Shown here: positions 17,981-22,688 of the stretch, in pieces
Numbering within the stretch: position 1 is the first letter of the stretch
How the letters are laid out: each line of letters begins with the position of its first letter
Assembly (NCBI GenBank): GCA_964589975.1
Contig: CAZPVH010000001.1
Span: 164,853-228,852, forward strand
Reading direction: 5' to 3'
DNA length: 64,000 nucleotides
From: an uncultured Candidatus Saccharibacteria bacterium
Lineage (GTDB): Bacteria; Patescibacteriota; Minisyncoccia; Phycocordibacterales; CSBR16-119
Translations under genes and position numbers: made by a program
The notes under the pieces: generated by a model
Database searches by the model: none
What the model saw: only the letters and a program-made list of their open reading frames with translations
What the model was told of the DNA's origin: nothing

Positions 17981-18256
17981 CTAAATGTTATCCTTAATCC
18001 ACATAGAATGCTTGTCAGTTAGACCACCCCAAGCGGCAGCGTCACTTGTAATATTTATTACAAGCAACCGATCGTTGCTGTCAATGTATGAATTCGTGAT
18101 TGTGTCACGAACCTCTTTTGCTGACTTACCAGTCTTAATTAACCACAATGATTCTAGTGGTTTAACGAAGCCTGAGTATGTCTGAAGATGGTCCCAAAGA
18201 GCTTGATAGTTTTTTTCAGGACTACGAAGATCATAGTTAATGAGAATTGTGTTCAA
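17981..18256 (-). CDS. Hypothetical 91-aa protein at the edge of the AT-rich island
   Basis: MNTILINYDLRSPEKNYQALWDHLQTY...; N-terminal beta-strand ILINYDL is reminiscent of Cas2/VapD-like ferredoxin folds but is unverified. Confidence 0.45.
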   Translation of the reverse strand: MNTILINYDLRSPEKNYQALWDHLQTYSGFVKPLESLWLIKTGKSAKEVRDTITNSYIDSNDRLLVINITSDAAAWGGLTDKHSMWIKDNI

Positions 18257-18509: not shown

Positions 18510-19154
18510 ATGCATCCAATACAAGAAAAGTTACTAAAAATCATTAGTGAGAAGAATATTGGGGATCTCACACTACGTGATATCGGTGATCTAATTGCCG
18601 AAAAGTTACCTCAGAAGATTAAACACCACCTTTTTCAGCTTGAGAGGAAGGGGTTTATTGTTGTCGACAAGAAAAAAAAGTCTATCACTAGAGTGATCGG
18701 TGCAAAAAAGACTCCAAAAGAAATGTTTATTTCCTTACCTATAGTCGGATCAGCTAATTGTGGTCCTCAAACTATTTATGCCGAACAAAACATTGAAGGT
18801 TATTTGAAAGTCTCTAAAAGAATAGTTCCAAAGGCTAATAATGTATTTATACTTCGTGCTGAAGGAAATTCATTGAATAGAGCAGACATAAAAGGTAAGA
18901 GTGTAGAGGATGGTGATTTTGTCATTGTTGATAGTGAAAGTACATCTCCAAAAAATAATGATTATATTGTTTCGATAATTAGTGGCTTGGCAAATATTAA
19001 AAAATACGTGTTTGATAAAGAAAATTCACAAATTGTCCTACTCTCAGAATCTTCACAACATTTTGATCCCATATTTATACATCAAGATGATGATTTTAGG
19101 GTTAACGGTAAAGTGATTGGCGTAATTAAAAAACCTAAGTTTATTAGCCATTAG
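18510..19154 (+). CDS. LexA-like repressor (N-terminal winged-helix plus C-terminal S24 autopeptidase)
   Basis: wHTH N-domain; PIVGSANCGP cleavage-site region, S24 Ser (AEGNSL) and Lys (ANIKKY); very low GC. Confidence 0.75.
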   Translation: MHPIQEKLLKIISEKNIGDLTLRDIGDLIAEKLPQKIKHHLFQLERKGFIVVDKKKKSITRVIGAKKTPKEMFISLPIVGSANCGPQTIYAEQNIEGYLKVSKRIVPKANNVFILRAEGNSLNRADIKGKSVEDGDFVIVDSESTSPKNNDYIVSIISGLANIKKYVFDKENSQIVLLSESSQHFDPIFIHQDDDFRVNGKVIGVIKKPKFISH

Positions 19155-19162
19155 TTAGTTAA

Positions 19163-19927
19163 TTGATTATAATTACATTTATGAAAACTGTTGAGTGTAT
19201 AAAAATAAAAATTGAAAAAAAGCAGACACCTCTAGATTGGAACGATTGGAAAAATACTATCCAACAAATGGATTGTTTGACTGGCCTACAACACATCCCA
19301 GATGGTTCTATTGATTTAATTGTTACAGATCCGCCTTACGGAATAAGTAAACAACTAAATTGTAAAGGAAAGAGGCTTGGATCAACAGCTAAACTAGATT
19401 TTGATTTCGGTGAGTGGGATACTTTTAGCAAGGACTGGTTCCATATCGCCGTAAAAAAGACTCGTGGGTGGATGATGACTTTTTGTGCAAAAAAAGATGT
19501 TGGCTTTTTTATTGACACTCTAGAGAAAGAAGGCTTTATAGCTGTTGATGTATTGGTTTGGCAAAAACCTGATCCGGTCCCTCTTAATGCAAAATCACGC
19601 TTTTTAAACGCATGGGAAGCTGTTGTTATAGGTAAGCGTCCAGGTTCAACTTGGAATAGCACTTATGAGCACAATATAATCAAATGCCAAGCTCCAAAGG
19701 GTAAAAATAGATTTCATCCAACACAAAAACCAGTTGAATTGATTAAAAAACTTATATCATTGGCAACGAAAGAAGGAGATATTGTTCTTGACCCATTTAT
19801 GGGTAGCGGAACTACTGCGGTTGCATGTGTAGAATCAAAAAGAAACTATATTGGTTTTGAATTATCAAAGGAATACCACAAGATGGCGCTAAATAGAATT
19901 AAAGAGTTGCCCACTCAACTATTTTAA
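19163..19927 (+). CDS. DNA methyltransferase, beta-class (N6-adenine or N4-cytosine), M1
   Basis: motif IV LIVTDPPYG near the N-terminus, HPTQKP, motif I DIVLDPFMGSGTT near the C-terminus; 9 nt after the LexA-like stop. Confidence 0.85.
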   Translation: MIIITFMKTVECIKIKIEKKQTPLDWNDWKNTIQQMDCLTGLQHIPDGSIDLIVTDPPYGISKQLNCKGKRLGSTAKLDFDFGEWDTFSKDWFHIAVKKTRGWMMTFCAKKDVGFFIDTLEKEGFIAVDVLVWQKPDPVPLNAKSRFLNAWEAVVIGKRPGSTWNSTYEHNIIKCQAPKGKNRFHPTQKPVELIKKLISLATKEGDIVLDPFMGSGTTAVACVESKRNYIGFELSKEYHKMALNRIKELPTQLF

Positions 19928-20911
19928 TTTTTGGTCTGATGAATAAATAAGTTTTGCTTTGATATCTCGTGCGTCCTTAACAGATAAGGAGGCTTGCTTC
20001 CTTCTTATTTCTTTACCTTGATCTTTATACCTTACTTCTTTTACTTTTAATTTCTTTTTAAGTAATTTAACAATCTTTTTTGTATCTGCTTCGTATATTT
20101 TTTTTACAACAAAATCATTTTTATCAACGGTGGCAAGAATTATGCTTTTATCTGTCATGTATTTCTTCAAAACATCTTTTGAAATATCTTGAAAACTCCA
20201 ACTCGATCCTTTTGCCACTTTGTATTCATACATATTACCAAAAGCATCTGTAGCGTCATGTTTTGATTGTTCAGACTGAACCTTATGTCCTAAGCGCAAA
20301 GCTACTAAAACCTCCCAAAACTTGTTGCTAGTTAAAATGTCACTGGTGCCAACCTGCTGTTCAATTTTTAAAATAACGTCAACAATCTTTTTAATCCATT
20401 CAGAATAAATTCCAGAGCACAATCCCGTGGTTGTCTTTTTTTTGAAAGCCAGGGTTGTTTCGATCTGCCTAGGTCCCACATTGATCATTTTTCTATTATT
20501 AGTAATTCGTTTTGTAGCTTCAAATAGATACCCCGATATTATTATTCCGGGAACTTCGTAGTACCAGTCAAATACCGGAAACGGAACATTTTCATCTTGT
20601 ATGTGAGCAAAGATAACACTTTTGGCTTTGATCAATTTCTCGATTGTTGTGTCTGAAAAATCATTAAATGTCCAGGTGTGATTGGAGCTACTCTCCTTGT
20701 AATGCTTATACTCAAATTCGTTACCATCGTCGTCTTTTGCGTCTCTTGATCCTGAATGACCAGAAATAAGCTTATGATTCAACGTGTCAGCGATAAGTAC
20801 CTCAAATATCTTACTATTTGTTATAATGTCTGTAACACCGAAGGTGGCATAGAAATCAGCCTGAATTTTCTTGAGTTGCCCTATAAGGTTTTCTGTGTCA
20901 TTAGTGTCCAT
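19919..20911 (-). CDS. Putative restriction endonuclease with two tandem PD-(D/E)xK modules (single-chain pseudo-dimer)
   Basis: internal repeat: ...FEVLIADTLNHKLISG...DAKDDDGNEFEYK... and ...WEVLVALRLGHKVQSE...DATDAFGNMYEYK...; each has a D...EYK catalytic signature; flanked by two methyltransferases. Confidence 0.6.
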   Translation of the reverse strand: MDTNDTENLIGQLKKIQADFYATFGVTDIITNSKIFEVLIADTLNHKLISGHSGSRDAKDDDGNEFEYKHYKESSSNHTWTFNDFSDTTIEKLIKAKSVIFAHIQDENVPFPVFDWYYEVPGIIISGYLFEATKRITNNRKMINVGPRQIETTLAFKKKTTTGLCSGIYSEWIKKIVDVILKIEQQVGTSDILTSNKFWEVLVALRLGHKVQSEQSKHDATDAFGNMYEYKVAKGSSWSFQDISKDVLKKYMTDKSIILATVDKNDFVVKKIYEADTKKIVKLLKKKLKVKEVRYKDQGKEIRRKQASLSVKDARDIKAKLIYSSDQKLK

Positions 20912-20914
20912 ATA

Positions 20915-21736
20915 ATGAAAACTATATCAATAAAAACTAAAATAAGCACTACCGACGAAAACGCATTGATTTTTGGTGATGCAATAGCAATTTTAAAATC
21001 CCTACCTGATAATTCAGTTGATCATTGTTTTACTGATCCGCCATATAACATATCTGGATACGACAATAAGAAAAAGATAGGCTGGCTTCAGTCAAACAAG
21101 ACATGGGTTGAAGAAAAGAAATTTACAAAGATAGATGCAAAGTGGGATAAATTTTCCGACGACGATTATGTTGCTTTTACCAAAGCGTGGATATTGGAAG
21201 TTATGAGGGTTTTGAAACCAAACGGTAATATTATTATTTTCGGTTCGTATCATAATATCTATAAAATTGGTTCCATACTCCAAGATTTTGATCGAAAATT
21301 AATAAATTCTATTACATGGTATAAAAGAAATGCCTTTCCAAATGTAACGCAAAGAATGTTTTGTGAAAGCACAGAGCATATTATCTGGGCTGTAAATGAG
21401 ACACAGAAAAAAGCAAAGAATTGGAAATTTAATTATAAGGAAATGAAGGCCTTAAATGGAGGTGTCCAGATGAGAAACATGTGGGACATTGTCGCAACTC
21501 CAACATCAGAGCGAGCTCATGGTAAGCACCCATCGCAAAAGCCAATCGAGATATTAAATCGTCTAGTAATAGGATGTAGTAATAAGGGCGACGTTATTAT
21601 CGATCCATTTATGGGTAGCGGCACCTTGCCCGTTGCTGCACAGATTAATGGCCGGAAATACATTGGTATTGATAGTGAGAAGGAATTTTGTGACCTTGCT
21701 CTAAAGAGGGTTAGGGCTAAAGAAAACCGATTATAA
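20915..21736 (+). CDS. DNA methyltransferase, beta-class (N6-adenine or N4-cytosine), M2
   Basis: FTDPPYN, HPSQKP, DPFMGSGT; ATG only 3 bp from the divergent endonuclease start codon. Confidence 0.85.
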   Translation: MKTISIKTKISTTDENALIFGDAIAILKSLPDNSVDHCFTDPPYNISGYDNKKKIGWLQSNKTWVEEKKFTKIDAKWDKFSDDDYVAFTKAWILEVMRVLKPNGNIIIFGSYHNIYKIGSILQDFDRKLINSITWYKRNAFPNVTQRMFCESTEHIIWAVNETQKKAKNWKFNYKEMKALNGGVQMRNMWDIVATPTSERAHGKHPSQKPIEILNRLVIGCSNKGDVIIDPFMGSGTLPVAAQINGRKYIGIDSEKEFCDLALKRVRAKENRL

Positions 21737-21743
21737 TAAATTT

Positions 21744-22688
21744 ATGCCACTATTTAAAATATATAACAATAAAGTAACAAAAATTGAAAAACGTAATATT
21801 CTTGAAAAAGATATTCAAAAGATAATAGAAGAAAATCTTCTAGAGATATTAGATATATACTTCCTAGGTACAGAATTTGTTACTACTGATGGACGAATAG
21901 ATTCCGTAGGTTTGGACAAGCATGGGTCGCCAGTAATTATTGAATATAAGAGATCCCAAAATAATAGCGTTATAAATCAAGCTACTTGGTATCTAGAATG
22001 GCTACTTGATCATAAAGAAAAGTTTGAAAAGCTTGTTGAAGATAAGTTAAAAAAACATTTTGTTAATGAGCTAAAAGATACTATGGAGCCAGTAGATTTT
22101 CCTACAATTGATTGGATGAATCCGCGCCTTATTTGTATAGCGGAAAGTTATAATAAATTTGATCTTGGCCTCGTGAAGTTTTTACCATTTAAAATTGAAC
22201 TTTTGAAATATCGTCTCTATGATGATCTATTGTCTATCGAGTCAGAGAATATACAAAAAGGTATGAGGATTAGTGAAAGAACAAACTCATTAGCAATTGA
22301 TGAAGATAGTAAGCCTATTAGAGAATACGGTAAGGAATATTTAATAACTGATCTGTTTAAAGATAGTTGGGCAGAGAGTCGTGAGCTCTTTGAGCAAATT
22401 CGTGAGAAAATTTTGGAGTTGGATAGTAATATTGAAGAGAAAATAACAAAACTTTATATTAGTTATAAAACAGAGAATATTTTCTGTGAGATAATACCTC
22501 AAGCTAAGGGCTTATGGATCCATGTCACAATTCCTATTGATAATGTTATGAAAAACAAAATAGAACTTCATGACGTAAGCGAGAAAGGGCACTGGGGAAC
22601 AGGCGAGACAAAATTCAGAGTAGAAAAACCATCTGAGGTAGATCTCGCTGTAGATTATATTAAGCAATCTTATGAGTTTGGCTTATAG
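21744..22688 (+). CDS. NucS/RecB-like PD-(D/E)xK nuclease-domain protein with an unknown C-terminal domain
   Basis: TDGRIDSVGLDKHGSPVIIEYKR matches the NucS/DUF91 nuclease core; about 200 aa C-terminal region unassigned; 7 nt after M2. Confidence 0.55.
   Translation: MPLFKIYNNKVTKIEKRNILEKDIQKIIEENLLEILDIYFLGTEFVTTDGRIDSVGLDKHGSPVIIEYKRSQNNSVINQATWYLEWLLDHKEKFEKLVEDKLKKHFVNELKDTMEPVDFPTIDWMNPRLICIAESYNKFDLGLVKFLPFKIELLKYRLYDDLLSIESENIQKGMRISERTNSLAIDEDSKPIREYGKEYLITDLFKDSWAESRELFEQIREKILELDSNIEEKITKLYISYKTENIFCEIIPQAKGLWIHVTIPIDNVMKNKIELHDVSEKGHWGTGETKFRVEKPSEVDLAVDYIKQSYEFGL

Follow-up and report, generated by a model that had tools for sequence, protein, structure and literature searches.

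A candidate natural single-chain PvuII-type endonuclease encoded between two DNA methyltransferase genes in a Candidatus Saccharibacteria genome

The window analysed here is a 64,000-nucleotide (nt) stretch of contig CAZPVH010000001.1 from an uncultured Candidatus Saccharibacteria bacterium. It carries a cassette in which the gene for a 330 amino acid (aa) protein, a predicted two-module endonuclease, lies between two DNA methyltransferase genes, M1 and M2 (Table 1). The cassette is located within an island of low G+C content (34-36% vs about 46%). M1 is convergent with the endonuclease gene, and their 3' ends overlap by 9 nt (19919-19927). The M1 open reading frame (ORF) opens at a TTG (19163), and the ATG at 19181 was picked as the start to match the 248-aa neighbour in L002, one of the related loci used for comparison (all labelled with the prefix L); the length of M2 agrees with the 273-aa gene call in L001. 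The start codons of M2 and the endonuclease gene are divergent and 3 bp apart (CAT ATA ATG, 20909-20917), so each promoter must lie inside the opposite gene.

Table 1. Features of the endonuclease cassette, with positions in the window
Feature	Position	Strand	Description and basis
Endonuclease gene	19919..20911	-	330 aa, one chain, two PvuII-like modules
N-terminal PvuII-like module (N-module)	20432..20911	-	residues about 1-160; hhalign, PDB profile search, conservation
C-terminal PvuII-like module (C-module)	19922..20416	-	residues about 166-330; Pfam PF09225, hhalign, conservation
N-module active-site motif DAKDDDGNEFEYK (D57, E67, K69)	20705..20743	-	translation
C-module active-site motif DATDAFGNMYEYK (D219, E229, K231)	20219..20257	-	translation
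Methyltransferase M1	19181..19927	+	248 aa; class beta, motif IV DPPY; PF01555 E 4.8e-41
Methyltransferase M2	20915..21736	+	273 aa; class beta, motif IV DPPY, CcrM-like; PF01555 E 5e-47
LexA-like helix-turn-helix (HTH) + S24 peptidase gene	18510..19154	+	immediately upstream of M1; Peptidase_S24 E 1.6e-18

The two halves of the endonuclease are homologous. A BLASTP comparison of residues 1-165 with 166-330 gave 36 identities over 84 positions (43%, E 3e-16), and hhalign of the two half profiles, made from an alignment of 85 homologues cut at residue 160, paired residues 7-151 with about 171-316 (probability 99.1%, E 7.3e-19). As the latter alignment covers 138 columns, the homology spans the full length of the halves and not the motif alone. 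An earlier reading made from the letters alone (the sequence-only reading) had proposed two homologous PD-(D/E)xK modules in one chain, each with its own D...EYK signature. The strings it had set side by side, FEVLIADTLNHKLISG with WEVLVALRLGHKVQSE and DAKDDDGNEFEYK with DATDAFGNMYEYK, reappear as pairs within the BLASTP alignment, and both motifs are found in the translation. The proposal stands with one refinement, which is that the modules are PvuII-like and not merely generic PD-(D/E)XK domains.

The likeness to PvuII was detected by several routes. Residues 186-303 of the C-module match the Pfam family PF09225 (Endonuc-PvuII; E 1.7e-5, 25.3 bits, cutoff 25), and the N-module gave no Pfam match. 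When the module profiles were aligned to the PvuII sequence using hhalign, both were matched (N-module, E 5.5e-6; C-module, E 2.6e-4). The top matches of the family profile among all PDB sequences were solely PvuII entries, the best being 3KSK, an engineered single-chain PvuII, with two matched stretches. In these alignments, N-module positions 6-71 correspond to PvuII 5-71 and the family consensus GsrDAkDekGgEYEYK falls on PvuII GNDAVDNAGQEYELK. The two triads, D57/E67/K69 and D219/E229/K231, share a D-x9-E-x-K spacing equal to that in PvuII GNDAVDNAGQEYELK, and they occupy the positions of the catalytic residues of that enzyme (D58/E68/K70). A profile was required for the PDB matches, as phmmer with the sequence alone returned none; the modules are 17-21% identical to PvuII.

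An AlphaFold2 model built from an 85-sequence alignment has a mean predicted local distance difference test (pLDDT) score of 92.9 and a predicted template modelling (pTM) score of 0.89, and is confident across the linker between the modules. Foldseek comparison of the model with the PDB placed 3KSK first (E 2.4e-15, template modelling (TM) scores 0.64/0.67, 339 aligned columns), followed by PvuII subunits and then, more weakly, by the methyl-directed PvuII-fold enzymes NhoI and Eco15I. Because the model aligns co-linearly with 3KSK, over 286-339 positions, the whole chain mirrors the placement of the two PvuII subunits, and the pseudo-2-fold arrangement foreseen by the sequence-only reading is present in the predicted model as a PvuII-dimer-like pair within one chain. 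The three-dimensional PvuII fold that characterises PF09225 is likewise seen in this model.

Conservation was counted over 142 non-identical homologous sequences. The N-module triad is kept almost without exception (D in 139, E in 141 and K in all 142, with D57 replaced by N in the remaining three), and D219, E229 and K231 of the C-module are each present in 141. Each module also has its own set of constant residues. In the N-module S75-x-N77-H78-x-W80-T81-F82-N83-D84 and N138/R140/M142/N144 are family-invariant, while the C-module has an invariant L193-T-S-N-K197 together with conserved W238, F240, D242, R303, R304 and Q306. The segments aligned by hhalign with the STHHH loop and the DINNPK strand of PvuII, presumably DNA-contacting regions in that enzyme, are invariant within the family and different between the modules. 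They comprise the two listed N-module sets and, in the C-module, W238/F240/D242 and R303/R304/Q306. Since both triads and these module-specific putative contact segments are kept across the family, decay of the second site is unlikely. The same pattern argues that the modules read different half-sites, with the specificity being the same throughout the family, and if they do so then the target would be asymmetric.

The genes flanking the endonuclease had been called methyltransferases by the sequence-only reading, and both do encode N6/N4 DNA methyltransferases of PF01555 in a conserved context. The nearest solved structure to M1 is M1.HpyAVI (5HEK, E 4e-36) and that to M2 is CcrM (6PBD, E 1.3e-49), although the M2 score against the CcrM NCBIfam model (228 bits) is well below the equivalog cutoff of 830. 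M.PvuII is a weak match to M1 and M2. Judged by motif and relatives, both are probably N6-adenine methyltransferases. They share 26% identity and their nearest relatives differ, and an origin by recent duplication, paralleling that of the nuclease, was rejected on these grounds. A genome scan, using one genome per species, found 62 loci with an endonuclease homologue. Orthologues of both M1 and M2 stand beside the endonuclease gene (R) in 23 of them, in the order M2-R-M1 or R-M1-M2. In other loci the endonuclease gene is beside an ORF of 780-890 aa with an M2-like domain and further methyltransferase signatures, and in yet others its neighbours are M2 and a ~530-550-aa methyltransferase, or else large D12 + N6_N4 proteins. 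Two methyltransferases thus accompany the nuclease in the window and in the 23 loci, and most of the others have a second or a multi-domain methyltransferase ORF. The two-methyltransferase arrangement is shared by loci from Patescibacteria, archaea, marine picoplankton and Clostridia.

The endonuclease belongs to a sizeable family. A word-indexed search returned 481 relatives with E <= 1e-3. Lengths of 320-335 aa prevail almost throughout the best 120, where any name given is 'hypothetical protein', and Patescibacteria are the source of many. The cluster names are likewise 'hypothetical' or blank. When 1.84 billion cluster representatives were searched exhaustively with a profile, 141 matched. 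About a dozen of these represent full-length members of the family; the remainder comprises fragments, other tandem proteins and PvuII-like proteins with a single module (~160 aa). The 62 genome loci are distributed over Patescibacteria, Aenigmatarchaeota, Nanoarchaeota, Woesearchaeota, Nitrosopumilus, Methanosarcinales, Prochlorococcus, Pelagibacteraceae, Cytophagales, Clostridia (including the cultured Petralouisia muris and Bovifimicola ammoniilytica) and others. The closest homologue in the scan (92% identity) is from a Candidatus Paceibacterota genome. No homologue was found in the plasmid collection. The sole match in the phage collection is 46% identical and reaches the end of its contig, MT836948.1 (7380-8201, minus strand), an 8.2-kb 'Bacteriophage sp.' sequence from human faeces that carries no annotation. 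Some family members may therefore be phage-borne.

An all-against-all BLAST of the modules grouped the N-halves of the family with N-halves and the C-halves with C-halves. Once its own set is left aside, each module is next closest to the other module and to P0184, a PvuII-like protein with a single module. The endonuclease therefore appears to have arisen by internal duplication of a PvuII-type homodimeric enzyme, and not by fusion of a pre-existing heterodimer. The sequence-only reading had described it as the fused equivalent of heterodimeric asymmetric-site enzymes. As to class this agrees with the results, which point to a two-site single chain with two methyltransferases; as to origin, internal duplication replaces heterodimer fusion. 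Two further groups of tandem proteins have nearest single-module relatives of their own (P0188/P0216/P0232/P0208 with P0205, and P0209 with P0194), which suggests, from best hits and not from a phylogeny, that PvuII-type subunits have been tandemly duplicated repeatedly and independently. These other tandem PvuII-like families (P0209, P0188, P0208, P0216, P0232 and P0237) are 300-355 aa long, come from marine and other metagenomes, and mostly carry D...EYK in both halves. P0209 (L068/L069, 4001-5032) is found in a Tet/JBP-ADDT-P-loop nucleotide kinase cluster, a DNA-hypermodification context, and P0216 has a C-terminal SAP domain. At the two tandem-protein loci examined, those of P0209 and P0216, there was no methyltransferase neighbour.

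Taken together, the protein is probably a natural single-chain PvuII-type pseudo-dimer acting as a Type II restriction nuclease on an asymmetric site, with one methyltransferase for each strand. According to this model, an ancestral PvuII-type subunit, a homodimer on a palindrome, would have been duplicated in tandem, after which the copies diverged. The modules would pack like the two subunits of PvuII to form a single DNA-binding cleft, with the two metal-dependent D/E/K active sites facing it, one per strand. Each module, having its own invariant putative contact residues, would read a different half-site of an asymmetric target, probably of about 6 bp. By analogy with PvuII, a single binding event would suffice to cut both strands inside the site, probably at its centre and leaving blunt ends. 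M1 and M2 would each be presumed to methylate one strand, probably at N6 of adenine.

Several points weigh against this model. The PF09225 match is marginal, its score being just above the cutoff, and is limited to the C-module. The superposition on 3KSK has a root-mean-square deviation of 4.8-5.6 Å, so that the cleft geometry is approximate. The assignment of M1 and M2 as N6-methyladenine enzymes is drawn solely from the DPPY motif and the nearest solved relatives. Some distant homologues, in Clostridia, adjoin methyltransferases that are weakly related to M1 and M2, and specificity may for that reason vary within the family. Lastly, an oligomer avoidance analysis of the window plus 617 kb of related loci revealed no clear asymmetric 5- or 6-mer, and CACGTC (BmgBI), CCGCTC (BsrBI) and CAGCTG were not clearly depleted. 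Separately, the palindrome CTTAAG (an AflII-type site) is strongly under-represented across the window (1-64000), with 2 occurrences where a second-order Markov model predicts about 30 and a maximal-order model 12. This scarcity may be a sign of a further restriction system, in this genome now or in its past.

Other explanations were considered. It is unlikely, but the best-surviving of these, that both modules are active on a palindromic or degenerate pseudo-palindromic site, the enzyme then being functionally Type IIP in one chain, as engineered single-chain PvuII is, and the methyltransferases redundant or of different specificities. Against it, the putative DNA-contact segments differ between the modules while being invariant within each, and two distinct methyltransferases are co-conserved or fused, a hallmark of asymmetric sites (PMC4081073). 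Quite improbable is a pseudo-dimer with one cutting module, in which the other would, as in Sau3AI, be a degenerate domain serving in DNA binding or allostery; such an enzyme would nick, or would have to bind twice for a double-strand break. Tandem nuclease-fold proteins with one inactive copy do exist, Sau3AI being an example, and the replacement of D57 by N in three homologues could be read in the same way. The loss of catalytic residues from one domain that marks Sau3AI-type enzymes is, however, not seen here; the D/E/K residues of both modules are kept in at least 139 of the 142 sequences, across bacteria and archaea, which would be unexpected for a decayed site. A modification-dependent (Type IIM/IV-like) nuclease, akin to the PvuII-fold enzymes NhoI and Eco15I that target methylated DNA, is highly improbable, even though NhoI and the N-domain of Eco15I are the next structural neighbours after PvuII. 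That two adjacent PvuII-like genes were joined by a sequencing or assembly error is refuted by the full-length homologues, which number in the hundreds, measure 320-335 aa and stem independently from different assemblies and phyla, by the recurrence of the exact endonuclease sequence on a contig from another sample, and by a model that is confident across the linker.

The preferred reading, a single-chain pseudo-dimer, can be compared with known systems. R.PvuII (Type IIP, CAG^CTG; PF09225; PDB 1PVI, 1PVU) has the same fold and catalytic spacing as both modules but is a 157-aa homodimer on a palindrome, whereas here two diverged modules are joined in one chain. Its partners are one N4-cytosine methyltransferase and a C protein, in contrast to two DPPY-type methyltransferases and a LexA-like gene without a C protein. 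In architecture and partners, the endonuclease therefore departs from the PF09225 pattern of a homodimer of ~157-aa subunits, palindromic CAGCTG and an N4-cytosine methyltransferase. Single-chain PvuII (scPvuII; Simoncsits et al. 2001; PDB 3KSK) is an artificial fusion of identical subunits that kept its palindromic specificity, while the endonuclease is natural, with halves that are about 29-43% identical and recognition loops that differ between them. Restriction enzymes with two different catalytic sites are classed as Type IIT (Pingoud, Wilson and Wende; PMC4081073, section 35), and include heterodimers (BbvCI, Bpu10I) and single chains (Mva1269I, BtsCI, AciI, BsrI, BssSI, BsrBI). In BbvCI and BmgBI the two subunits or domains have similar sizes, and each recognises and cuts; two methyltransferases, separate or fused, are usual for the type, and mutation of one site yields nickases (PMC4081073). 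At the sequence level, the endonuclease has the two non-identical catalytic sites in one enzyme that define this type, and it resembles Type IIT/IIA systems further in its two methyltransferases, its expected asymmetric target and its expected convertibility to nickases. Single-chain enzymes that have been structurally described, such as Mva1269I and BsmI, have unlike domains, in contrast to the two paralogous PvuII-type modules seen here. BmgBI, BsrBI or similar enzymes may be sequence relatives of the family; no named relative was returned by the relative, plasmid, phage and cluster searches. Among the LAGLIDADG homing endonucleases, tandem duplication of a homodimeric nuclease subunit, of the kind seen in I-CreI, gave pseudo-symmetric monomers (I-SceI, I-AniI) that are free to recognise asymmetric DNA. 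The evolutionary logic is the same, but the fold is unrelated and those are mobile intron or intein enzymes and not parts of restriction-modification systems. A 2008 classification lists five members of the PvuII family, all of subtype P (PMC2441816), and a study of PvuII orthologues describes C-protein fusions but no tandem forms, citing the engineered single-chain enzyme alone (PMC3850674). No description of natural tandem PvuII-like enzymes was found in the literature, only engineered single-chain PvuII and the general account of Type IIT.

Control of the cassette appears to differ from that of PvuII-type operons, in which a C gene lies upstream of the endonuclease. No HTH C gene occurs between M2 and the endonuclease gene; the gene upstream of M1 is the LexA-like one, which scores 95.7 bits against the TIGR00498 lexA model (cutoff 110.95). 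A LexA-like gene directly upstream of M1 also occurs in L004, L006, L018, L019 and L053. In L009 (5978-7354, minus strand) it is fused to M1, with LexA_DNA_bind, Peptidase_S24 and N6_N4_Mtase Pfam domains in a single 459-aa ORF, and stop-to-stop ORFs of similar length occur in L021 (5978-7321, minus strand) and L036 (5978-7318, minus strand). A LexA-like self-cleaving repressor may control the system in place of a C protein, with a possible link to DNA damage. A 10-nt inverted repeat upstream of the LexA-like gene was set aside as an operator candidate. Its core, TTGACA, falls on -35 boxes predicted for divergent promoters, and the locus of the closest homologue (L006) lacks the exact repeat, which occurs elsewhere once, in L015.

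The gene directly downstream of M2 (21744-22688, plus strand) specifies 314 aa. Its product combines a NucS_C-like PD-(D/E)XK region at the N-terminus with DUF5655 and has a match (E 2.9e-81) to PDC-S18, a candidate defence family of PADLOC; its homologues also adjoin the restriction-modification cassette in L028 and L037. As a PDC-S18-type gene adjoins the cassette, the low-GC region looks like a small defence island. At its edge (17981-18256, minus strand) is a 91-aa ORF with faint Cas2-like similarity (PADLOC Cas2b, E 0.005; Pfam CRISPR_Cas2, E 0.17). Rfam and tRNA scans of the window gave no matches.

The sequence-only reading had pointed to the enzyme as a source of strand-specific nickases. 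The concept matches the known Type IIT class, but the idea itself is already well described (PMC4081073). Two catalytic sites in one chain, a pair of methyltransferases and conversion to nickases are all established, and the advance is for that reason incremental; it is of some evolutionary interest and is attractive in practice for engineering nickases. The new elements are the PvuII-tandem architecture and an uncharacterised family of about 480 proteins, with the proviso that BmgBI, BsrBI or similar enzymes may be relatives. If the pseudo-dimer model is confirmed, a compact enzyme of 330 aa whose two active sites are separable would become available, in which D-to-A or E-to-A changes at D57/E67 or D219/E229 should give top- and bottom-strand nickases for a possibly new asymmetric site. 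About 480 'hypothetical' database proteins could be annotated as restriction endonucleases, and the family would provide a natural experiment in the passage from a symmetric to an asymmetric restriction enzyme, for which 3KSK is an engineered structural reference. More speculatively, and less likely than not as a whole, the endonuclease may be the first recognised natural counterpart of scPvuII and the founder of a cross-domain family (Patescibacteria, DPANN and other archaea, Prochlorococcus, Pelagibacter and Clostridia) whose asymmetric specificity is new. The family would then represent one of three or more tandem duplications that the PvuII fold underwent independently, and part of it would have LexA-like repressor wiring. 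If this is true, restriction enzymes would have repeatedly taken the route from homodimer to pseudo-dimer that is known from the LAGLIDADG homing endonucleases, and a LexA-like self-cleaving repressor, sometimes fused to a methyltransferase, would replace the C protein in part of the family.
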